A DNA stretch of 39,485 bases. Origin: a virus (lineage: Duplodnaviria; Heunggongvirae; Uroviricota; Caudoviricetes). The position numbers were made by a program, and so were the translations under genes. The notes beneath the pieces are model-generated. The model ran no database searches. It was not told the DNA's origin and was given only the letters and a program-made list of their open reading frames with translations. How positions within the stretch are numbered: the first letter of the stretch is position 1; the number at the start of each line of letters is the position of its first letter. The stretch is from IMG/VR virus record IMGVR_UViG_2802429241_000009. One strand, 5' to 3'. Shown here piece after piece: positions 1,450 to 36,338 of this stretch.

Positions 1450-2096
1450 GCAGCACGCTCCCGTCCCTGGTTGTCTGTTGGTGACAGCGGAGCATTGCTG
1501 AATGCATTTGTTAATCCGCCAATATCCAACGCGTATCCAGGGTGTAGTTGCACTGCCGGGTCTTCGCACTGATTACCCCAAACATCGAAGCCATGAGACG
1601 TCTGGCGGGCGAACAGTTCAATGCGAGAAACATCGCCTAATAATTGCACAAGTTTTTCACGAACGATATCTGGCTTTCTTGAATGCTCAAGCCGCGGTGC
1701 GGTAAATGACTGAACGATCCCTGCATTAATGCGCGTAGGTAGTTTTCCCTTTACCGCAAACAGGCAATCTTCACTATTGGCGCGAGTCATGTGTCCCATA
1801 CCCATAACAAGTTTATCTGGTTGTCGACTACCACATTTTATCCACGTGAAGCCCTTCATCGTCATCAGACGGAATCCCCAGGCTTCAACAACTTTTAGTG
1901 CTTCGAGTGGTTGTGTTGGCACCCACCACATGGCCAACAGACAGTTTTCATCGGCCAAATCCCACACAGGAAGGCGGCAGATATCCAGCACACTCATAAC
2001 CGGATATTTAAAACCGGCACCGCGATTACCATCTGCGGCTTTGTCCCGGTATACCCAGGGTGGATCTGCATAGATTAGTGTGTATTTCTTAGTCAT
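1446..2096 (-). CDS. MT-A70 family DNA N6-adenine methyltransferase
   Basis: N-terminal LIYADPPW motif; about 216 aa; start taken at the ATG giving MTKKYT (GTG at 2108 is an alternative). Confidence 0.8.
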   Translation of the reverse strand: MTKKYTLIYADPPWVYRDKAADGNRGAGFKYPVMSVLDICRLPVWDLADENCLLAMWWVPTQPLEALKVVEAWGFRLMTMKGFTWIKCGSRQPDKLVMGMGHMTRANSEDCLFAVKGKLPTRINAGIVQSFTAPRLEHSRKPDIVREKLVQLLGDVSRIELFARQTSHGFDVWGNQCEDPAVQLHPGYALDIGGLTNAFSNAPLSPTDNQGRERAA

Positions 2097-2340
2097 AAAC
2101 CACCCCACAACATCCTATGCCGCTATAGTCGCCACGGCGAAGGCCGTTACCTTTTGTGATACATTGGTCCCTGCGAACCGCGATCCTTGCACGCTCAACA
2201 TCACCAGAAGCAACATCCATACACTGAAGCCAAAGGTAGGCGGCAATTCGGAATTGCCCTTTTTGCTCTCTTTCAATCGCGCGTTTTTCGATCTCTATCG
2301 CCGCAGGAGTAACGGCAACAACCTTTGAAGGGCTGCGCAT
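2089..2340 (-). CDS. Hypothetical protein (83 aa)
   Basis: ORF with AAGG Shine-Dalgarno before the ATG at 2340; 3' end overlaps the methylase start; ORF could extend to 2388. Confidence 0.4.
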   Translation of the reverse strand: MRSPSKVVAVTPAAIEIEKRAIEREQKGQFRIAAYLWLQCMDVASGDVERARIAVRRDQCITKGNGLRRGDYSGIGCCGVVYD

Positions 2341-2497
2341 TGAAACCTTGTTCATGTGATATTTTTCAAGTCGGCTTAACTCTCTCACTTAATCCAACCC
2401 TCTCTGAAAATTAATGCCAGCAGATAAAGCCATGCTGAAACAGAGGCCAGGAATAAGTACCATCCTGACCATTTGCTCCAGTGCTTTAGCAGCACAC

Positions 2498-5099: not shown

Positions 5100-5684
5100 T
5101 TATTGTTTGTTTTTTTCGTTCTGGTTGATGACAAATTCAATGTAACTTTCGATCTTTGCTTTCTCGGTTTCGGGTAACAATGCGTAGCGCGAGCGATCAT
5201 AGTTGATGGTCGCAGGGTCGTGCGGGTGAATCAGTAATTCATAGCCGTGACGCCCGAATGCGGATGCAACATTCTCCAGGGTGGAAATGGAAACGCTGAC
5301 CTCATTGTTTAACAGGCGGCTGATTGTCACCTGGGCGACGCCGGATGCGCGGTGTAGTTTTCCCTGCGTTGAAAGGTCGCGGCTTTCGCTCATCCAGCGT
5401 TCCAGGTTGTGAGCCGCCAGCTGACCAATGTCGCTAGGGCCGACAGGCTGAAAACCTTCCTGAGAAAGCGAGCGATCGATATCAAGCCAGTTACGGGGTT
5501 TATTGGCGGCAGCTTCAATTTTTCGCGCAACCTGGTCGCCGATAACCTTCTTGCCAAGAGCCCAGCGGTTTACCAGATTTGCCTGAGTTCCAAGTTTTTC
5601 AGCCATCCGCGTCTGAACACCATTGAATTCACGGTCGATCAAGTCGTTGAGATTTTGCCTGCGGACGTCCTGGATACTTTTCAT
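5100..5684 (-). CDS. Prophage repressor candidate (CI-like position, two HTH-like segments, no visible autocleavage module)
   Basis: 194 aa, divergent from the Cro-like gene; followed by an intrinsic terminator; no Ala-Gly/Cys-Gly plus Ser-Lys peptidase module recognised by eye. Confidence 0.65.
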   Translation of the reverse strand: MKSIQDVRRQNLNDLIDREFNGVQTRMAEKLGTQANLVNRWALGKKVIGDQVARKIEAAANKPRNWLDIDRSLSQEGFQPVGPSDIGQLAAHNLERWMSESRDLSTQGKLHRASGVAQVTISRLLNNEVSVSISTLENVASAFGRHGYELLIHPHDPATINYDRSRYALLPETEKAKIESYIEFVINQNEKNKQ

Positions 5685-5838: not shown

Positions 5839-6069
5839 ATGAGCGATAACGGACATTTCGATTTCAAAAAGCACTGGCTTGCACTTACTCCGGATGAGCG
5901 TGAAGCCTTCGCACAGGAAGCCGGAACGACGAGTCACTATATCCAGACTCACTTAACAGGTAAGCGCAAAATGCCAGGTAAGGTATTGATGAATGGGCTT
6001 TTTAAAGCCTGTAAAACAAGACAATGGCTGCGCTCAAAAGCAGAACTGGCATACTTCTTCTACTCATGA
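5839..6069 (+). CDS. Cro-like small HTH regulator
   Basis: 76 aa, divergent from the repressor across the operator cluster; LALTPDEREAFAQEAGTTSHYIQTHLTGKRKMP HTH-like segment. Confidence 0.65.
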   Translation: MSDNGHFDFKKHWLALTPDEREAFAQEAGTTSHYIQTHLTGKRKMPGKVLMNGLFKACKTRQWLRSKAELAYFFYS

Positions 6070-6090: not shown

Positions 6091-6118
6091 AGACCGCCAT
6101 CCGGCGGTCTTTTCATAT
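6091..6118 (+). terminator. Intrinsic terminator downstream of the Cro-like gene (tR1-like position)
   Basis: AGACCGCC-ATCC-GGCGGTCT followed by TTTTCATATCT. Confidence 0.6.
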
Positions 6119-6217: not shown

Positions 6218-6430
6218 TTGAAGATAGTAACCAGAATGGAGGCCGCAAAAGCCGGGTTAAATCGCTATTTCACAGGAAAGCGGTGCCGTCACGGCCATCT
6301 CTCTGAAAGGTATGTTCTGAACGGAACATGTGTTGAATGTGCAATGAATAGCGCCAACCGCCATCGTAATGAATTTGCTTGTGCACTAAAGAGTGCAAGA
6401 GGGGAAACCTATGGCAAGCAGCTGGATTAA
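6218..6430 (+). CDS. Small zinc-finger-like protein (putative early regulator)
   Basis: C-x-H-x-H ... C-x2-C spacing (CRHGH...CVEC); TTG start at 6218 with GGGG SD, or ATG at 6236. Confidence 0.45.
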   Translation: MKIVTRMEAAKAGLNRYFTGKRCRHGHLSERYVLNGTCVECAMNSANRHRNEFACALKSARGETYGKQLD

Positions 6431-8054: not shown

Positions 8055-8083
8055 TTGATTTCGTGTCTTATGTGGTTTTTAAT
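8055..8083 (+). promoter_or_regulatory. Sigma70-like promoter candidate upstream of the gene at 8101
   Basis: -35 TTGATT, 17-bp spacer containing TTATGTGGTT, -10 TTTAAT; bracketed by operator sites 62 bp apart. Confidence 0.4.
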
Positions 8084-10166: not shown

Positions 10167-10703
10167 ATGAATTCTATTACCAAAGAACGTATCGAATTAT
10201 CCATTAAAAATCCGCTTGAAAACGGGCTTACTCGTAGCGAACAAATGGAAGTGGCACGGATTGCACTGGCATCACTGGAAGCCGAACCTGTAAGCCAAAC
10301 TTACAAGTTGCCAGTTAATACACCTTGCCAAGATGCGCCAGTCAATATCTGGCTGCAAACGGCTGGAGTATGGCCAGAAGATGGCGAGTTAAGCGAATTA
10401 ACGTGGTGCAGCCACAATCAGCACCATGATGACACGCTATATGTTCGAGCTGACCTTGTAAATGGCAACTATCCGGTAACTCCGGATGGTTGGATAAGCT
10501 GTAGTGAGCGAATGCCTGAAATTAGACAAACAGTTATTGGATGGAATGGATATGCAGTTAGACAATGCGTATATACAAGGAATGAATATGCCAAGACACA
10601 GAAAGGCAGAGAGCCAAGGTTTGAAACCTTAACTGGTATATGGCATGGAGTAACCCACTGGATGCCGCTACCAGAACCGCCGCAGGAGGTTAACCGTGGC
10701 TAA
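10167..10703 (+). CDS. Hypothetical protein with a DUF551-like C-terminal segment
   Basis: 178 aa; C-terminal W..C..RMP...GW motif pattern typical of DUF551 phage proteins as recalled. Confidence 0.5.
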   Translation: MNSITKERIELSIKNPLENGLTRSEQMEVARIALASLEAEPVSQTYKLPVNTPCQDAPVNIWLQTAGVWPEDGELSELTWCSHNQHHDDTLYVRADLVNGNYPVTPDGWISCSERMPEIRQTVIGWNGYAVRQCVYTRNEYAKTQKGREPRFETLTGIWHGVTHWMPLPEPPQEVNRG

Positions 10704-10977
10704 CCTGCAACTTGCCGTCAAAGGTGAATACTTCGATGCCATGATTCGCGGGGAGAAAACGGAAGAGTATCGCTTGTGTAATGACTACTGGAATAAGCGA
10801 ATTATGTTCCGGGAGTATGACCGCCTGATTATCACAAAGGGATATCCGAAGCGCGACGACTTCAGTCGCAGAATTGACGTCCCGTATAACGGATATGAAA
10901 TAAAAACAATCACACATCCACACTTCGGTGATAAACCGGTAAAGGTATACGCGATAAAGGTAAATATTGATGGCTAA
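10696..10977 (+). CDS. Small ASCH/PUA-like domain protein
   Basis: 93 aa; GTG start after GGAGG; family assignment from recollection only. Confidence 0.45.
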   Translation: MANLQLAVKGEYFDAMIRGEKTEEYRLCNDYWNKRIMFREYDRLIITKGYPKRDDFSRRIDVPYNGYEIKTITHPHFGDKPVKVYAIKVNIDG

Positions 10978-11308
10978 ATCAGCAGCAGAGCGCAAAGCCG
11001 CTCAGAGAGCCAGACAAGCTGCATCTGGTGTGCGTAAGCTGGAAATTGTGCTTGATGCTCAGGAAATTGAAATGCTGGAGCGTAACTGTGCTACGCGTCG
11101 CCCCGGGCGTGCGCCTTACGAATTTGGTGAGTATATAGCGTTACTGATCCGCCAGGATGATGCACGCGTGCACGGGCGTATAAAATCGATCAGCAGAAAA
11201 CGTTGCGGTAAGTGCGGCGAGAGAGTTCCAGTTAATTCATGCCCGTGTAATGGTGACTCGCAATGCTGGGTGACTAAAGGCTGGCATGAAACGAAATTAA
11301 TAGTGTGA
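10970..11308 (+). CDS. Putative DNA-binding regulator: N-terminal ribbon-helix-helix-like segment plus C-terminal Cys cluster; candidate late-gene regulator
   Basis: RKLEIVLDAQEIEMLER resembles an RHH strand-helix; C-terminal C-x2-C-x8-C-x-C-x5-C; last gene before the terminator and terminase genes. Confidence 0.45.
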   Translation: MAKSAAERKAAQRARQAASGVRKLEIVLDAQEIEMLERNCATRRPGRAPYEFGEYIALLIRQDDARVHGRIKSISRKRCGKCGERVPVNSCPCNGDSQCWVTKGWHETKLIV

Positions 11309-11357
11309 CATGTTACGAGTAGATTATGCATGATGAATTTGATGGGTTTTGAATACT

Positions 11358-11384
11358 GCCGCCAACTATGGCGGCTTTATTTTG
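11358..11384 (+). terminator. Intrinsic terminator immediately upstream of the terminase small subunit gene
   Basis: GCCGCC-AACTAT-GGCGGC followed by TTTATTTTG. Confidence 0.65.
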
Positions 11385-11387
11385 CAT

Positions 11388-11419
11388 GGTACTATTACCA
11401 CAACGGTAACTATTACCAC
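11388..11419 (+). repeat. Tandem direct repeat GGTA(A)CTATTACCAC x2 between the terminator and the terminase small subunit start
   Basis: 14/15-bp units at 11388..11401 and 11405..11419; each contains the TTACC half-site, and the second forms GGTAA-CTA-TTACC. Confidence 0.5.
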
Positions 11420-11426
11420 GGTGGTT

Positions 11427-12023
11427 ATGATGCCTGCTGAACCTAAAACCTATAAACGCAAATCAACGCAATTTAAGCCGCTCACAGCAATGCAGGAGGC
11501 TTATTGCCAGTCATACATCAAAACGCCTGAAAACCAGACTCAGGCAGCGATTAACGCAGGATTCTCCCCAAATACAGCGGCAGTTAAAGCCAGTGTCATG
11601 ATGCGCGATGAACGCATTCAAAAACGGATTGCCGAGTTGATGGAGGAGCGCAACAAACGAATGCGCGTCAGTGCTGATTACGTTCTCATGCGCCTGGTGG
11701 AGATCGACCAGATGGACGTGATCGATATCCTCAACGACGATGGGAGCCTTAAACCAATCCGTGAGTGGCCGAAAATCTGGCGCACTACGCTTAGTGGCTT
11801 TGATCTGTCATCGACCATCATGAACATGAACGAGGATTCGATAGAGACAATCCTCAAAAAAATTAAATGGCCTGACAAGGTGAAGAACCTCGAACTGATT
11901 GGTAAGCACGTCGACGTCAACGCATTCAAAGAACGCCTGGATGTTAATGTGAATGTGACAATTGCTGATCGCATAGCGGCAGCCAGGAAGCGACTCAAAG
12001 AACGTCAGGATGGTAATCAGTGA
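11427..12023 (+). CDS. Terminase small subunit
   Basis: Immediately upstream of and overlapping the large terminase gene; start at ATG-ATG after GGTGG (upstream TTG start would cross a terminator hairpin). Confidence 0.65.
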   Translation: MMPAEPKTYKRKSTQFKPLTAMQEAYCQSYIKTPENQTQAAINAGFSPNTAAVKASVMMRDERIQKRIAELMEERNKRMRVSADYVLMRLVEIDQMDVIDILNDDGSLKPIREWPKIWRTTLSGFDLSSTIMNMNEDSIETILKKIKWPDKVKNLELIGKHVDVNAFKERLDVNVNVTIADRIAAARKRLKERQDGNQ

Positions 12024-13495
12024 CAGATACAGCGTTATCTCCTGAAGAGCAGTTGATCGAGGATATTGCAGGGTTCACTCACGATCCGCTTGGCTATGCC
12101 CTCTATGCGTTCCCGTGGGGGGAAGAGGGGACTGAATTAGCACATGCCACCGGTCCACGTCAGTGGCAGGCTGATGCGTTCCGAGAGATACGTGATCACC
12201 TGCAGAATCCAGAGACGCGCTATCAGCCGCTTATGCTGGCACGCGCTTCGGGTCACGGTATTGGTAAATCCGCATTCATCTCAATGCTGATCAACTGGGG
12301 CATGTCCACTTGCGAGGATTGTAAGGTCGTGGTGACCGCCAACACCGACAACCAGCTACGAACGAAGACCTGGCCGGAAATTATCAAGTGGTCGAACCTT
12401 GCTATCACGAAAGACTGGTTTACCTGTACCGCTACCGCGATGTACAGCAATGACCCTGGGCACGACAAGCGGTGGCGAGCTGACGCAATCCCCTGGTCTG
12501 AGCACAACACTGAGGCATTCGCCGGACTACACAACGAGCGCAAACGCATCATCGTGGTATTCGACGAAGCATCCAACATTGCCGATCTGGTGTGGGAGGT
12601 AGCAGAGGGTGCGCTGACGGACGAAGACACTGAGATTATCTGGGTGGCATTCGGAAACCCTACACGTAACACCGGGCGTTTCCGCGAATGTTTCCGCAAA
12701 TATAAACACCGCTGGAAAACTGCGCAGATTGACAGCCGGACGGTGGAAGGCACTAACAAACAGCAGTTGCAGAAATGGGTTGATGACTACGGGGAAGACA
12801 GCGACTTCGTTAAAATCCGTGTGCGCGGCATATTCCCGGATGCATCTGAATTGCAGTTTATCCCTACCGGCCTTACTGACGAGGCAATGAAACGGGTGGT
12901 AACCGCTGCGCAGGTTGCACATGCTCCGGTGATAATCGGCGTTGACCCGGCATACTCCGGCGTTGATGACGCTGTGATATACCTGCGGCAGGGGCTGCAC
13001 AGTAAGGTGCTGTGGACTGGCAACAAGACCACTGACGATCTGATTATGGCGAAGCGTATCGCTGACTTTGAAGACCAGTACCAGGCTGACGCGGTATTCA
13101 TCGACTTCGGTTACGGTACCGGTCTGAAGTCAATCGGTGACGGCTGGGGGCGTACATGGCAACTTGTTCCGTTCGGCGGTGCGTCCACTGACCCGCAGAT
13201 GCTTAACAAGCGTGGGGAGATGTTCAACTCATGTAAGACATGGCTGAGGCTGGGCGGCATGCTGGATGACCAGGAAACAGCGGACGACCTGTCGGCGGCA
13301 GAGTACAAAGTTCGCGTGGACGGTAAAATCGTTATCGAACCGAAGGAAGATATCAAGGAGCGGCTTGGGCGTTCTCCTGGTAAAGGCGATGCGCTATTGC
13401 TGACGTTTGCTTTCCCGGTGTCGAAGCGCCTGCGACTTCCCGGGCAGCAGAACCAGCAAGGCAAGGCCATTACAGATTACGATCCCTATGCTTAA
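12020..13495 (+). CDS. Terminase large subunit
   Basis: 491 aa; Walker A-like ARASGHGIGKS; position upstream of portal. Confidence 0.9.
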   Translation: MTDTALSPEEQLIEDIAGFTHDPLGYALYAFPWGEEGTELAHATGPRQWQADAFREIRDHLQNPETRYQPLMLARASGHGIGKSAFISMLINWGMSTCEDCKVVVTANTDNQLRTKTWPEIIKWSNLAITKDWFTCTATAMYSNDPGHDKRWRADAIPWSEHNTEAFAGLHNERKRIIVVFDEASNIADLVWEVAEGALTDEDTEIIWVAFGNPTRNTGRFRECFRKYKHRWKTAQIDSRTVEGTNKQQLQKWVDDYGEDSDFVKIRVRGIFPDASELQFIPTGLTDEAMKRVVTAAQVAHAPVIIGVDPAYSGVDDAVIYLRQGLHSKVLWTGNKTTDDLIMAKRIADFEDQYQADAVFIDFGYGTGLKSIGDGWGRTWQLVPFGGASTDPQMLNKRGEMFNSCKTWLRLGGMLDDQETADDLSAAEYKVRVDGKIVIEPKEDIKERLGRSPGKGDALLLTFAFPVSKRLRLPGQQNQQGKAITDYDPYA

Positions 13496-13623
13496 TCCGC
13501 TGGAGGGGATAATGACGAAGATATCCTCTGGCGAGGATAAAGCAAATCCAGTCTATGAGCTGGCTGTTTGTGACATGTCACGACATCAAAATGCATCGAA
13601 TTCGTATTTCATGATTCACAGCT

Positions 13624-13811: not shown

Positions 13812-13888
13812 TGGCGTGGCATGCAGGATTCGAACCTGCGACCAACCGCTTAGAAGGCGGTTGCTCTGTCCGACTGAGCTAATGCCAC
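13812..13888 (-). tRNA. tRNA-Arg (anticodon UCU), phage-borne
   Basis: 77 nt with full cloverleaf: 7-bp acceptor GTGGCAT/ATGCCAC, D-stem GCTC/GAGC, anticodon stem ACCGC/GCGGT with loop CTTCTAA, T-arm GCAGG-TTCGAAT-CCTGC, encoded CCA; close to E. coli argU as recalled. Confidence 0.85.
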
Positions 13889-14225: not shown

Positions 14226-14315
14226 TAATTCGTGCGTTAAATGTCAACCATCTACGATAAATAAATCATATGTGGTTAAATTGGTAATAATTTAATTGCG
14301 TACGGAGTCATTGAT

Positions 14316-27819: not shown

Positions 27820-30294
27820 ATGAGACAGGAATGTATACAAGCGGTCCAGCAGGCGGCGCAGCGCACGTTAACGGCGCGAGAAATACAGAACATTGAAGAC
27901 CGCATTTATCGCAATATGCGCTCCATTGCTCGTGATGACCCTATGTCGTGGCGACAACTTTCCGAGTCAGAGCGGCTGTATCGTGCAGCACAATTGGCAT
28001 CTGAAGAATTACAGCGAGAAGCGGCATTAAAGAAACGTCGTGTGGCTCTCACTATAGCCGCACGTCAGAGATTGGATAAATTTATCAATAGCTATCAAGG
28101 GGCTGATGGGAAACTTGGCGCTCTTAACCGTACTATTGCTTTTAATGCAGACGGTAAATCGAATTTCCTCTCTGTTGAGTCCAGAACAAAAGCCACTCGT
28201 GATTATGCATTGAGTCAATTGCAGGAGGCATTCGAAGCAGTTGATCCTCGCTTTTTTGGCCTGTTTGAAGATGAAGCGGGCGTGCGTGACCTGGTATATG
28301 AAATGCGAGGGCAAAATACTGGCAATGCTAAAGCAAGAAAAGGTGCTAAGGCGTGGAGAGAAGTGACAGATCTACTCCGCCGCCGGTTTAATGATGCTGG
28401 TGGGGACATTGGCTATCTCGAAAACTGGGGGATCCCTCAACATCATTCTATGGAAAAGGTTGGGGCGGTATCAAAGGATAAGTGGGTTAGCGATGTTATA
28501 GGTAAGCTGGATCGCAAATATTATATCCGAGCCGATGGACAACTGATGAATGATGCCGAGTTGTCTGCATTTCTTGGAGAGGCTTATAACACGATCGCTA
28601 CTGGTGGGCTGAATAAGCTTACTGATACCGGAATGCGAATTTCCGGCGCACGTGCTAACCGTGGTAATGCATCACGACAGATACATTTCAAAGATGCAGA
28701 TTCCTATCTCCAATATCAACAACTTTATGGCGATCGCTCTCTATGGGAAATCATGGTCGGTCACCTGGAAGGGATCAGTAAAGATATTGCTCTGGTGGAA
28801 ACATATGGCCCAAACCCCGATCATGTTTTCCGTTCCCTTCTTGATCAGGTGAAGGCTGAAACGGCAACAGCTAACCCGAGTAAAACCGGTAGCGTTGAGC
28901 GGCTGGCGAACAAAACAGAGAACCTGTACAACTTTATTTCCGGAAAGACACAGCCTGTAGCTAATCCGCACATCGCGCGATGGTCTGACAATATCCGCAA
29001 CTGGCTGGTTGCCAGCAGACTCGGATCCGCGTTGCTGTCATCGTTCTCTGATCTTGGAACCATGTATCTGTCTGCGAAGGTTACCAACCTTCCAATGAAC
29101 CAGTTATTCCGCAACCAGCTTGAAGCTATGGACCCAACGAACCGTACTGAGCTTGCGCGGGCGCGCCGAGCTGGTCTGGCGATGGAATCTCTACTTGGCA
29201 GCGTTAACCGCTGGGCGATGGATAATATGGGGCCGTCTGTGTCTCGTTGGGCGGCAACGGCGGTAATGCGTGCCAGTGGGCTTACAGCATGGTCAGATGC
29301 GCACAAGCGCGCCTATGGCGTAACTATGATGGGAAGCCTGGGAGAAGTAGTGTCACGGACACCAGACCTTCGTAGCCTCGATGACTCTGATTTTCGTATC
29401 CTGAAAAGCAAAGGGATTACTGACACAGACTGGAGCGTATGGAAGCTGGCGCAACAGGAGGACTGGGGGAACGGTAATAATACGATGCTGACACCGGAAA
29501 GCATTATGCGTATCCCTGATTCAGCAGTTAAACATCTTGGTGAGCCTGAACGTGTGAAATTTGAGGCAATGCGTAAACTGCTCGGTGCCGTAACTGAAGA
29601 AGTTGATATGGCTGTTATTACACCGGGCGCACGTGAACAGATGTTCGTAGGGTCTGGTCTTCAGCGTGGAACATGGAAAGGTGAATTAACGAGAAGTGTT
29701 TTCCTGTTTAAATCGTTCCCTATCTCGGTAGTTATGCGTCACTGGCATAGAGCTATGGGGATGCCGTCTGCTGGTGGGCGTGCGGCATATATAGCAACGT
29801 TTTTAGCAAGCACAACCATGCTTGGTGCTCTTTCCATGCAGATTACTGATCTTATTAATGGGAGAAATCCAAAAGAAATGACCGGTGACAACATGGTTAA
29901 ATTCTGGATAAATGCATTTTTAAAAGGTGGTGGGGCAGGGTTGTATGGTGATTTTCTTTTCTCTGACCACACCAGGTACGGGAGCGGCGCACTAGCGTCG
30001 ATGCTTGGCCCGGTAGCTGGTCTGGTTGATGACGTAGTGAAGATTGCTCAGGGCATACCGTTAAATGCTGTGGAAGGGAAGAATGAGCAGACTGGTGGTG
30101 ATCTGGTTAAGCTTGGGAAAGGTTTGATGCCTGGTGCGAATCTCTGGTACTTGAAGGCGGCTCTCGATCACATGATCTTTAACCAGATGCAGGAGTATTT
30201 TTCACCAGGCTATTTGCGTAAAATGGAGCAACGTTCGAAGAAAGAGTTTAATCAGACATACTGGTGGCGACCTCAGGATGTCACTCCGCAATAA
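27820..30294 (+). CDS. Internal virion / ejection protein (T7 gp16-like position)
   Basis: 824 aa; GAGAGG SD. Confidence 0.55.
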   Translation: MRQECIQAVQQAAQRTLTAREIQNIEDRIYRNMRSIARDDPMSWRQLSESERLYRAAQLASEELQREAALKKRRVALTIAARQRLDKFINSYQGADGKLGALNRTIAFNADGKSNFLSVESRTKATRDYALSQLQEAFEAVDPRFFGLFEDEAGVRDLVYEMRGQNTGNAKARKGAKAWREVTDLLRRRFNDAGGDIGYLENWGIPQHHSMEKVGAVSKDKWVSDVIGKLDRKYYIRADGQLMNDAELSAFLGEAYNTIATGGLNKLTDTGMRISGARANRGNASRQIHFKDADSYLQYQQLYGDRSLWEIMVGHLEGISKDIALVETYGPNPDHVFRSLLDQVKAETATANPSKTGSVERLANKTENLYNFISGKTQPVANPHIARWSDNIRNWLVASRLGSALLSSFSDLGTMYLSAKVTNLPMNQLFRNQLEAMDPTNRTELARARRAGLAMESLLGSVNRWAMDNMGPSVSRWAATAVMRASGLTAWSDAHKRAYGVTMMGSLGEVVSRTPDLRSLDDSDFRILKSKGITDTDWSVWKLAQQEDWGNGNNTMLTPESIMRIPDSAVKHLGEPERVKFEAMRKLLGAVTEEVDMAVITPGAREQMFVGSGLQRGTWKGELTRSVFLFKSFPISVVMRHWHRAMGMPSAGGRAAYIATFLASTTMLGALSMQITDLINGRNPKEMTGDNMVKFWINAFLKGGGAGLYGDFLFSDHTRYGSGALASMLGPVAGLVDDVVKIAQGIPLNAVEGKNEQTGGDLVKLGKGLMPGANLWYLKAALDHMIFNQMQEYFSPGYLRKMEQRSKKEFNQTYWWRPQDVTPQ

Positions 30295-30489: not shown

Positions 30490-30786
30490 ATGCAAGCGAT
30501 AGGATTCATTGTTTATATCGTCGTTGGCCTTTTTCAGTTGGCAGCAATTATGGCTGGGCTTGAATCAAGGTGGGGATTGCACTGGATAATTGCAGCCCCC
30601 ATTGCTTTCATCGTGAGCTATATTCCATTTGTTGGAGCGATTGTTGGTATGGTTGGTGCTGTGGATGTATGGCGGTGGGAGTGGTGGCAGGCTGGCCTTC
30701 TCTTCTTTGGTGGGATCATCTTTGCTATTGTCTGCGGTGGAATGTCATCATTTTTCGAACGGCTATCATTCAGAAAAGGAACGTGA
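30490..30786 (+). CDS. Small integral membrane protein (98 aa, about 3 TM segments)
   Basis: Strongly hydrophobic ORF; GGTGA SD; followed by a hairpin plus T-run terminator. Confidence 0.5.
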   Translation: MQAIGFIVYIVVGLFQLAAIMAGLESRWGLHWIIAAPIAFIVSYIPFVGAIVGMVGAVDVWRWEWWQAGLLFFGGIIFAIVCGGMSSFFERLSFRKGT

Positions 30787-30794
30787 CATGTCAC

Positions 30795-30819
30795 AGGCCG
30801 CTTTCGCGGCCTTGTTTTT
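30795..30819 (+). terminator. Intrinsic terminator after the 98-aa membrane protein gene
   Basis: AGGCCGC-TTTC-GCGGCCT followed by TGTTTTTA; lies between convergent genes. Confidence 0.65.
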
Positions 30820-30979
30820 AACGAATGCCACCGCCACCCGGGCGGGAATCCGCAGAACGCCCACCGCAGCGGGAGCCGTCAGCGGCAGTATCGCTGTCGT
30901 GCTGACAACGACCGGCAAAAGCCTGAGTTGAAGCTACCAGAGACAACAAAACGAACAGTGCAGCAAATGCTTTTTTCAT
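30818..30979 (-). CDS. Signal-peptide microprotein (53 aa; mature peptide about 31 aa with 2 Cys)
   Basis: MKKAFAALFVLLSLVASTQAFA looks like a Sec signal peptide with an AFA cleavage site; convergent with the upstream + gene; competing + ORF 30788..30931 crosses the terminator. Confidence 0.35.
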   Translation of the reverse strand: MKKAFAALFVLLSLVASTQAFAGRCQHDSDTAADGSRCGGRSADSRPGGGGIR

Positions 30980-32908: not shown

Positions 32909-33637
32909 ATGGAAGTTTTCTGGATAGTTGTTGGTGTGGTTGCGGTGATTATTTACGTTATCAACCAGAACAAGACTAAGATCTCTGATCGTACGGTCGT
33001 TAATCATAACAAAACGATAAAGACCGAAGATGGGGAGATAACGATTAATCGTACACAGGTGATAGAACACACCTCTACTCAGTTTCAAAAAACTGGAGGT
33101 AATGCGCCTAATATTTCCGCACCTCCTGCTTATGATAGTGCGGTAATCCAGACATATTATAAACAGCAGGAGTTAGCAAAAGAGAGGCAACTGATTCAGC
33201 CAAAGCCGTTTACAGCTGAGCTTCCACCTGGAGTGTCAACGCGTCCGGCATATCATGGAAGATTCCCTGGTGATGACATATCGTCTCAGTCATCTAAAAA
33301 AGCACCTCAGGCAGTATCAGAGCCAGCAAGAATACCTTCTGTATCGCCGCCAAAAGAAGAATCAGCTAACAGAGTTTCAAGTGGTAGCAAGCAGTGCTTG
33401 CGATGCAGAATAAACCTTCCATATGAAAAATTCAGGAAATCGTCAAAAAATCCAGATGGATTGACTAAGTGGTGTGCAAGGTGTCTCGATGGCCCAAAGA
33501 ATACACGCCATATGAAGTGGTGCCCAATTTGTAATGTCCGCAGAAAACGAACCAGTTTTTACCCTAATAATCAAAATGCGGATGGCTTAATGGCATGGTG
33601 CAAAACGTGCTGGGACGAGCACAAAGCGAAACGATAG
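32909..33637 (+). CDS. Membrane-anchored protein with a tandem C-terminal zinc-ribbon-like repeat
   Basis: N-terminal TM (VFWIVVGVVAVIIYVI); Ser/Pro-rich linker; two repeats of C-x2-C-x(17-20)-DGL-x3-WC-x2-C; ATG at 32888 is an alternative start. Confidence 0.55.
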   Translation: MEVFWIVVGVVAVIIYVINQNKTKISDRTVVNHNKTIKTEDGEITINRTQVIEHTSTQFQKTGGNAPNISAPPAYDSAVIQTYYKQQELAKERQLIQPKPFTAELPPGVSTRPAYHGRFPGDDISSQSSKKAPQAVSEPARIPSVSPPKEESANRVSSGSKQCLRCRINLPYEKFRKSSKNPDGLTKWCARCLDGPKNTRHMKWCPICNVRRKRTSFYPNNQNADGLMAWCKTCWDEHKAKR

Positions 33638-33660
33638 GCCGCTCTTGCGGCCTTTTCTTT
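33637..33660 (+). terminator. Intrinsic terminator after the zinc-ribbon protein gene, between convergent genes
   Basis: GGCCGC-TCTT-GCGGCC followed by TTTTCTTT. Confidence 0.65.
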
Positions 33661-33916
33661 ATGTGGTTTGTTTTCGTAGTTGTTCGGCACAATAGTCGAG
33701 ATGTGTTTGCAGATCCTGCATAGACATCTGTGAGCTGGTGACGTAGTTAATCAGTGCAGTCAGTTCGGCAAGTGGGCCATCGACATTAAATCCATCCTTA
33801 TCGAGATCCCGGAGTAATTTCATCAAGTGCGATCCCTCCACCAGTGATCTGACGCCTCCCGGCGTGTGAATCCTTTCGGTAAATCCGTCTTCCAGTGGAT
33901 AGTGATACCGCTGCAT
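33659..33916 (-). CDS. Small antirepressor-domain protein (85 aa), putatively LexA-controlled
   Basis: Homologous by eye to the C-terminal about 80 aa of the BRO-N protein at 31823..32509 (shared IH.P.GV, LM.LL, DG..V.G..AELT, D.QTH..Y); GGAGAAG SD; LexA-box-like site 21 nt upstream. Confidence 0.55.
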   Translation of the reverse strand: MQRYHYPLEDGFTERIHTPGGVRSLVEGSHLMKLLRDLDKDGFNVDGPLAELTALINYVTSSQMSMQDLQTHLDYCAEQLRKQTT

Positions 33917-33935: not shown

Positions 33936-33955
33936 AACTGTATATTTATACAGTA
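33936..33955. promoter_or_regulatory. LexA box (SOS box) candidate
   Basis: AACTGTATATTTATACAGTA: CTGT-N8-ACAG with an all-A/T spacer, 18 of 20 matches to TACTGTATATATATACAGTA as recalled; 21 nt upstream of the ATG of the minus-strand gene 33659..33916. Confidence 0.7.
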
Positions 33956-34007: not shown

Positions 34008-34111
34008 TATCTATTCGTATTCACAGTCTTTCTATCCATATGTGGTTTTTCAGGTAATAGAATAACCAGATATGCGGCGCAACGGGTGCTGCGACTATCT
34101 GGAGATTTAAC

Positions 34112-36244: not shown

Positions 36245-36338
36245 CTTCTTATCGAAAATAGAGGTTATTTTTATTCATATATGGTTTATGTATCATAAAG
36301 CCACCAGTTAATTGGTTACACACTTAAAAGGTGGTTTT

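Follow-up and report, generated by a model that had tools for sequence, protein, structure and literature searches.

We compared the junction of early and late genes in a phage sequence (IMG/VR record IMGVR_UViG_2802429241_000009, whose full 39,485 nucleotides (nt) we call the window) with the described systems that it resembles. At this junction, the gene for a small protein of the phrog_536 family is followed by an intrinsic terminator (tA), two palindromic operators and the terminase genes terS and terL. In phage epsilon15 (NC_004775), the record annotates gp49 as 'transcriptional regulator, similar to N15 gp46', the equivalent of tA as a rho-independent terminator (stem_loop 39646-39672), and a protein_bind 'repressor' site at 12-27 ahead of terS. 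Gene, terminator, palindromic site and terS are homologous one by one, with 76-78% identity between the two proteins and the same 84-nt segment between terminator and terS. The two loci differ in that a second palindrome, at the end of the phrog_536 gene, lies 22 nt from the terminator in epsilon15 versus 41 nt in the window, where it is a one-base variant. The junction is thus known in kind and in the epsilon15 family, because regulator gene, terminator and "repressor" site are all annotated there, and describing it again mainly corrects two points of the original prediction, its reading of the operators as repeats and its terS start codon. Three features described below have no annotation in the epsilon15 record: the second operator, the extended -10 element and the GTGACATGTCAC palindromes.

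Other systems are similar in part. As in the Q/PR'/tR' region of lambda, a small regulator gene ends the early operon and a terminator then precedes the late genes, but the window protein has no Q-family domain, no conserved promoter is evident directly upstream of tA, and the late genes form several units, each preceded by its own operator, in place of one long Q-dependent operon. With P1 C1 and the lambdoid OL/OR sets the window shares a single palindrome found at many promoters and clustered on both sides of the repressor gene; here, however, operators also lie directly ahead of structural and packaging units, and we infer that the repressor Rep binds them. Repressors of the ribbon-helix-helix (RHH) type (omega with its WATCACW heptads, Arc and Mnt of P22 immI, the TacA/ParD antitoxins) bind short repeated subsites, whereas the window protein adds a C-terminal four-Cys module and its putative site is found at the 3' end of its own gene rather than at a promoter. 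The Gram-positive activators RinA, LtrC and ArpU are likewise encoded by small genes immediately upstream of terS, but the proteins are unrelated in sequence (no Pfam match), the distance from the site to the terS promoter is not fixed, and the homologs of the window protein occur in proteobacterial phages.

E. coli O157 typing phages 9 and 10 share 99% identity with positions 10600-12100 of the window, the phiV10 record starts with sequence identical to the matching part of this segment, and epsilon15, SPN1S and Tyrion align to it at 79-86% identity. Judged by these identities, the window is a temperate podophage of the Uetakevirus (epsilon15/phiV10) type, present as a prophage. Our favoured reading, to which we give an even chance, is that the junction joins a terminator ending the early operon to a repressor-controlled promoter for terS-terL. 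Its elements are as follows.

10970..11308, plus strand: phrog_536 gene, 112 amino acids (113 if TTG 10967 is used), last gene of the early-right operon
11305..11316: palindrome A, GTGACATGTTAC, one base off the consensus GTGACATGTCAC; the phrog_536 gene stops at the TGA within it
11358..11384, plus strand: tA, intrinsic terminator with a 7-base-pair (bp) stem containing 6 G-C pairs, the loop ACTA and then TTTATTTT
11387..11395, plus strand: P_terS, candidate extended -10 element TGGTACTAT (TGgTACTAT), directly after the T-tract, proposed from its conservation
11394..11410: operator O1, ATTACC-ACAAC-GGTAAC, the equivalent of the site annotated 'protein_bind: repressor' in epsilon15
11412..11428: operator O2, ATTACC-ACGGT-GGTTAT, overlapping the Shine-Dalgarno sequence GGTGG (11420-11424)
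11430..12023, plus strand: terS, terminase small subunit, 197 amino acids, matching Pfam Terminase_2 at 1e-29

The terminator and the terminase gene that follows it had both been named in the original prediction and hold up well. A terminator scan finds tA, whose hairpin GCCGCCA-ACTA-TGGCGGC (11358-11375) folds at -13.8 kcal/mol. With its G+C-rich 7-bp stem, the UUUAUUUU that follows and its retention in relatives, it has the features of an intrinsic (rho-independent) terminator, and termination is predicted here; it is one of four strong plus-strand terminators in the window. Related loci were compared in about 80 IMG/VR sequences, in which the segment from terminator to terS takes 20 distinct forms. 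Across these variants the stem shows a single change, which is compatible with a G.U pair, and the segment from tA to the terS ATG is a constant 84 nt with no insertions or deletions. On this evidence tA is a strong and conserved terminator directly ahead of the terminase genes. The start of terS had been placed at ATG 11427, and the longer open reading frame (ORF) starting at TTG 11349 had rightly been rejected in favour of a downstream start. The most likely start is ATG 11430, since GGTGG lies 5 nt upstream of it, epsilon15 and Tyrion have that ATG alone, the first ATG is ATT in one relative (L060), and TL-2011b is annotated in RefSeq with this downstream start. A larger RNA structure around the terminator (11318-11397; minimum free energy -28.3 kcal/mol, z = -2.4) was considered and set aside, as it is not evidently conserved in epsilon15. 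In this structure GUAGAUUAUGCAUGAUGAA, upstream of tA, would pair with the U-tract and the following sequence, enclosing the tA hairpin.

Between terminator and start codon, a tandem direct repeat had been noted. Two repeats are indeed present (GGTACTATTACCAC at 11388-11401 and GGTAACTATTACCAC at 11405-11419; a direct-repeat search of the window allowing up to 3 mismatches gives 4 matches versus 0.49 expected), but they are the overlapping flanks of two abutting 17-bp palindromes, ATTACC-N5-GGTAAT, which constitute O1 and O2. In the 20 variants the arms of both are kept and the spacers vary, as expected of a protein-binding palindrome. With up to 2 mismatches the motif matches the whole window 15 times versus 1.0 expected. 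It is the commonest palindrome in the window, epsilon15, Tyrion and PAT1, with near-matches throughout Kp4865-1, and the "repressor" site of the epsilon15 record as well as six more annotated elsewhere in it all have this form. The motif was not found in the genomes of lambda or Chlobot. Recognition of the repeats by the upstream protein does not fit these findings, as the operator is spread genome-wide and flanks rep, yet is missing from Chlobot, a lambda-like phage with a homolog 89% identical to the 112-amino-acid protein. A third operator upstream of O1 was rejected, because its left arm would coincide with the T-tract, where 1 of 6 bases matches, and because the GG of GGTACT is variable. 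Rep and the other operators of the window are located as follows.

4965 and 5027: operators downstream of rep, bracketing the promoter PL
5100..5684, minus strand: Rep, prophage repressor with an HTH_3 domain, homolog of the SPC32H Rep structure 5D50 (E 4e-42)
5739: operator between rep and the cro-like gene, with degenerate neighbours, at the promoter PR
8020 and 8082: operators bracketing the promoter ahead of the resolvase gene
14210: operator ahead of the portal unit
31742, 32780 and 32873: operators in the antirepressor region
33992: operator ahead of the tailspike gene

The same palindrome is thus found clustered on both sides of rep and overlapping promoters, and operator clusters flanking a repressor gene are the classical signature of immunity operators. 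Rep is most likely the protein that binds ATTACC-N5-GGTAAT. At PL, which has the best promoter match in the window (TTGACA-17-AATCAT), and at the resolvase promoter, sigma-70 promoters are bracketed by operators exactly 62 bp apart from centre to centre, a spacing also found in epsilon15, Tyrion, PAT1 and Kp4865-1. The pairs are 4965/5027 and 8020/8082 in the window, 32554/32616 and 35906/35968 in epsilon15, and 34194/34256 and 37264/37326 in Tyrion, and they would suit a looping tetrameric repressor. In each pair, one operator lies upstream of the -35 element and the other over the -10 element and start site. Close to the tailspike operator, a LexA box (CTGTATATTTATACAG, 33938-33953) was seen between that operator and an antirepressor-related gene (33659-33916, minus strand, phrog_450).

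At terS, the bases that precede O1 resemble a sigma-70 extended -10 element. In all 20 variants a TG is separated by a single base (n) from a hexamer that keeps T1, A2 and T6, and a promoter is predicted here. TG and the hexamer bases T1, A2, A5 and T6 are invariant, N is G, A or T, and positions 3 and 4 vary to give TATTAT or TACAAT, which are nearer the consensus, and once TACCAT. The -10 element ends in the two bases with which the operator begins, an overlap also seen at PL and at the resolvase promoter. Transcription is predicted to start near 11402, inside O1, with a leader of about 25 nt that carries the Shine-Dalgarno sequence. Since the operators overlap a conserved extended -10 element, terS-terL probably has its own repressor-controlled promoter.

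From these elements, their conservation and the operator set, all of them directly observed, we infer how the junction might work. Early transcription would end at tA, after phrog_536 as the last early gene. In the lysogen, Rep bound to O1 and O2, which cover the predicted start site of the TGnTACTAT promoter and the terS ribosome-binding site, would shut off terS-terL by blocking both the promoter and any read-through, and it would act likewise at PL, at PR and ahead of other transcription units. After derepression, terS-terL would be transcribed from its own promoter, which tA would insulate from the early operon.

Several observations weigh against this reading. The argument for P_terS is its conservation, there is no -35 element, and part of that conservation is shared with the operator, because A5 and T6 are also operator bases. 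No heteroimmune relative with a different operator was found (epsilon15, Tyrion, PAT1 and Kp4865-1 all have ATTACC-N5-GGTAAT). A sequence element of other units, ATATGTGGTT, is missing at terS, so that terS could instead belong to the far end of the resolvase operon and be transcribed by read-through. Finally, a promoter-repressor model leaves the role of the 112-amino-acid protein unexplained and makes no use of the palindrome linked to this protein, which lies upstream of tA and two other terminators.

The element ATATGTGGTT occurs, with up to 1 mismatch, 9 times in the window versus 2.3 expected. Four units (resolvase, portal, tailspike and lysis) have a plus-strand copy (8068-8077, 14268-14277, 34038-34047 and 36277-36286) 25-65 nt upstream of their first gene. 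In most cases a Rep-type operator lies 30-45 nt before the copy, and the element is conserved in epsilon15 and Tyrion. It may be a promoter element or activator site shared by middle and late units; candidate binders are a PerC-like protein (2089-2388, minus strand) and a small Cys-rich protein (6218-6430).

We then considered the alternatives, the best of which concerns the phrog_536 protein. The original prediction had described it as a 113-amino-acid RHH/Cys regulator that might let polymerase read through into the late operon. The ORF (10967 or 10970 to 11308) and a Cys-rich C terminus (C-x2-C ... C-x-C ... C) are present, but the core is weakly RHH-like and no RHH profile matches the sequence. 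The phrog_536 profile ('transcriptional regulator', which includes N15 gp46 and epsilon15 gp49) matches with an expectation value (E) of 1.5e-54 over residues 1-111, and a tblastn search with the protein finds epsilon15 gp49 and N15 gene 46. Pfam and NCBIfam gave no match, including at a relaxed threshold of E <=10 applied to 32 members of the family. Sequence and hidden Markov model searches found no relative in the PDB, and Foldseek against the PDB gave nothing significant. An AlphaFold model (mean predicted local distance difference test score 71.6) contains helices at 5-18, 30-43 and 52-75, a coil at 19-29 and a Cys region of low confidence. An RHH-like core is plausible. The family comprises 217 clusters at 50% identity among 1.84 billion representatives and conserves a basic N-terminal arm (ERKxxQRxR), a short hydrophobic stretch, two helices (RRPGRxPY...EYIALLIRQD) and four Cys residues (CGKCG...C...C). 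The same representative library contains a predicted protein of 7287 amino acids (P0158) with six separate regions of similarity to the family profile (E 1.6e-48), possibly the product of an error in assembly or gene calling.

In at least six phage lineages, with unrelated backgrounds and 30-55% protein identity, the stop codon of the phrog_536 gene coincides with or adjoins a palindrome of the form GTGAC-N2-GTCAC. A perfect GTGACATGTCAC occupies site A in nearly all of the related loci, even where the last codons or the stop differ, and the site in phiV10 is the same variant as in the window. The motif takes these forms elsewhere:

N15 gene 46 and N15-like loci, 49 of 49: GCG TGA CTGGTCAC, with a CGGG centre in one locus
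P2-like Yersinia phage: TTG TGA CGCGTCACAA, a perfect 16-bp palindrome
Lambdoid Rouxiella prophage: CTG TGA CATGTCAC
Chlobot: motif 7 nt past a different stop codon
Very distant metagenomic homolog: ACG TGA CAGGTCAC
N15 (L092), 28550-28561 and 33237-33248: further exact copies, GTGACTGGTCAC
Window, 13570..13581: palindrome B, GTGACATGTCAC, downstream of terL
Window, 30783..30820, plus strand: palindrome C, GTGACATGTCAC (30783-30794), and terminator tC, with its stem at 30795-30812 and then a T-tract

A motif match within 30 positions has a chance of about 3e-5 per locus, and genomes of Uetakevirus and N15 contain 2-4 exact copies versus 0.02-0.06 in shuffled genomes. No exact copy was found in the lambda genome, and the stop-codon motif was not found in Vibrio K308, in L150, in L151 or in the Serratia P2-like prophages, the last of which have a cluster of such sites 1.5 kb downstream. 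The half-sites are invariant, lie 7 bp apart centre to centre and enclose two variable bases, a spacing that would fit two dimers of a sheet-inserting protein on adjacent subsites. Dimers of the omega repressor bind adjacent 7-bp subsites in this manner. Recognition as DNA rather than as RNA is favoured by the comparison, because the stem sequence is invariant and without covariation and because the RNA hairpin is weak (4-5 bp, -0.5 to -3.8 kcal/mol). Recognition through an RNA hairpin is accordingly less likely, though the C-to-T variant of the window would still keep a G.U pair. A comparison with lambda N/nut covered the conserved N-terminal arm ERKxxQRxR and the weak palindrome hairpin. Taken as a sequence pattern, the palindrome at the phrog_536 stop codon points to an unstudied regulator.

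Could this regulator control termination? On this alternative, the phrog_536 protein, as the last early product, would bind GTGAC-N2-GTCAC upstream of tA, tC and the terminator after terL and let polymerase pass; terS-terL would be transcribed from the early or the resolvase promoter, and the protein would time late expression in a phage without Q. We regard this as unlikely on balance, while ranking it first among the alternatives. A link between protein and termination is conceivable because the family palindrome adjoins tA and two other terminators: in Uetakeviruses all three conserved copies (A, B and C) lie 2-41 nt upstream of an intrinsic terminator. The TGA of palindrome C is the stop codon of the ORF 30490..30786 and the tC stem begins at the next base, an arrangement also present in epsilon15, Tyrion and PAT1. 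Terminators likewise follow the palindrome by 16 to about 55 nt in the Rouxiella prophage and the Yersinia phage, and of the two further N15 copies, one lies in the immA (antA-icd-antB) leader, about 115 nt upstream of its terminator, and the other inside repA. The position of phrog_536 as last early gene, the usual location of its homologs at the early/late border, the improbably frequent palindrome over its own stop codon, the excess of exact copies and the lack at terS of the ATATGTGGTT found at other late units all favour read-through. Neither the scan of the window ORFs nor the annotations of epsilon15 and Tyrion yielded a gene of the Q type, and the protein itself gives no Pfam match to the Q family (Phage_antitermQ, Q82 and Q21 types) at E <=0.01, or at <=10 across 32 members.

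On the other hand, N15 (gene 40), Chlobot and L151 encode Q as well as a homolog, which in L151 directly precedes the Q gene, and in the P2-like Yersinia phage the homolog coexists with a gene in the ogr position; the family is therefore no general substitute for Q. In Chlobot and the Rouxiella prophage, the gene is located within the leftward exo-xis region, distant from the late genes. In N15 and Chlobot it is not a terminator but a Shine-Dalgarno sequence and a gene that come directly after the palindrome, the terminator at site B serves the minus strand, and phiV10 is a viable phage with a mismatched site A. About 30% of Uetakevirus loci have an inserted gene that separates palindrome A from tA. 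A DNA-bound protein ahead of a terminator is moreover expected to be a roadblock, RHH proteins are normally repressors, and we know of no antiterminator with this architecture. The original prediction is thus borne out for the terminator and the last-early-gene position, and a Q gene was not found in the sequences named, but directly upstream of tA there is one weak promoter match and no conserved one. The idea of the protein as late factor draws support from its palindromes near terminators and loses it in phages that carry, besides a homolog, Q or a gene in the ogr position. A read-through module of the lambda kind is less likely than a terminator followed by a repressor-controlled promoter. 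A broader proposal, that phrog_536 proteins are new termination modulators in which an RHH-like core and a four-Cys module recognise GTGAC-N2-GTCAC and alter the fate of polymerase at terminators, is in our view a shade more doubtful still. If it were true, the family would time read-through into packaging and late genes in Q-less phages of the epsilon15 type, and in N15 would act at the terminator of the immA leader.

Two further alternatives are improbable to the same degree and rank below those just described. In the first, tA would be a partial terminator that needs no factor and lowers terminase relative to early genes, Rep at the operators would be a roadblock in the lysogen, and no promoter would lie between tA and terS. 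The first ATG comes only 42 nt after the T-tract, with no -35 element in between, and terminase is needed in small amounts. Read-through of a terminator must occur somewhere in this phage, because a strong one (6091-6110) lies inside the early operon after the cro-like gene, which also speaks for attenuation at tA. However, a hairpin of -13.8 kcal/mol with 7 U in 8 looks efficient, and the conservation pattern TGnTAYNAT fits a promoter. The terminator at 6091-6110 (plus strand; AGACCGCC-ATCC-GGCGGTCT, then TTTC) lies directly after the cro-like gene (5839-6069) and ahead of the replication genes, a position like that of tR1; no N-like gene or nut site was identified to go with it (boxA was not searched for).

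In the second, the phrog_536 protein would be a conventional repressor or insulator of RHH type that blocks polymerase at convergent operon ends or controls an adjacent, often LexA-regulated, promoter downstream. It would play no part in switching on terS. This role is compatible with our favoured model in which terS-terL has its own promoter. The 7-bp spacing of the half-sites resembles the omega heptads, and convergent genes meet at sites B and C; in Kp4865-1, PAT1 and epsilon15, a minus-strand terminator about 5 nt after site B serves a convergent moron gene. LexA-box promoters follow the phrog_536 gene in L062-L064, L070, L086, Kp4865-1, L150 and the Yersinia phage; in five loci and in Kp4865-1, the -35 element of such a promoter stands 6 nt downstream of the palindrome, and the promoter drives umuD-like or other genes. 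Against this stands that the three sites of the window have no adjacent promoter, save one weak match, and that a roadblock directly ahead of a strong terminator seems redundant. The weak match, GTGACA-18-CATGAT (11305-11334), would use the palindrome as a -35 element and was rejected as a promoter because it is not conserved, being lost in relatives with a gene inserted after the palindrome; inspection by eye shows GTGACA-17-TAAATT at the corresponding place in epsilon15 and Tyrion. A class-I activator site was also discarded as a general rule: counted from the predicted terS start, the palindrome would be centred at about -72.5 in epsilon15 and at about -91.5 in the window, but many loci have whole genes inserted between the two. 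That the repeats ahead of terS are a pac recognition site for the small terminase, as their adjacency to terS and the start of several GenBank records of the group here might suggest, is very improbable and was rejected, since the same palindrome recurs at 11 or more places in the genome, including both sides of rep and the inside of promoters, and the record starts follow convention (phiV10 right after the stop codon, Tyrion 2 nt later, epsilon15 after the T-tract).

The palindromes also coincide with sites of exchange. What follows site A is variable: a 22- or 41-nt spacer, an ORF of 70 amino acids, or a cassette with a LexA-box promoter and a umuD-like or other gene, each inserted before tA, and palindrome A is the left edge of an insertion hot spot. 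Site B is a mosaic joint, where the terL side is conserved and at least eight unrelated minus-strand cassettes end 3-4 nt away (L012-L091). We regard as the lead of this work a small uncharacterised protein family paired with a cis element across temperate phages of podo-, sipho- and myovirus type; in Uetakeviruses the palindrome marks, in addition, two other operon ends and mosaic joints. One member of the group, phiV10, serves as a reporter phage for E. coli O157. The literature searched, in which the primary epsilon15 and SPC32H papers were not included, holds no description of the second terS operator, the extended -10 element or the 62-bp pairs, nor of the association of phrog_536 with GTGAC-N2-GTCAC or of this palindrome by terminators and mosaic joints. 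A full-text search for the palindromes returned unrelated papers alone. The searched literature likewise does not describe how late genes are switched on in epsilon15/phiV10-like phages, and the ZX5 paper is silent on late regulation.

The gene order of the window around this junction is as follows.

Integrase, then a leftward early operon (methylase, PerC-like activator, excisionase, RecET)
rep (5100-5684, minus strand), then a rightward operon
Rightward operon: cro-like gene, O- and P-like replication genes, resolvase, Ead/Ea22, DUF551, ASCH-like gene and the 112-amino-acid gene
After the 112-amino-acid gene: terS and terL, a variable moron region with tRNA-Arg, then the structural genes from portal to injection proteins
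Antirepressor and serotype-conversion region, tailspike gene, lysis genes

The tRNA-Arg gene (anticodon TCT; 13812-13888, minus strand) lies in the variable stretch that separates terL from the portal unit.

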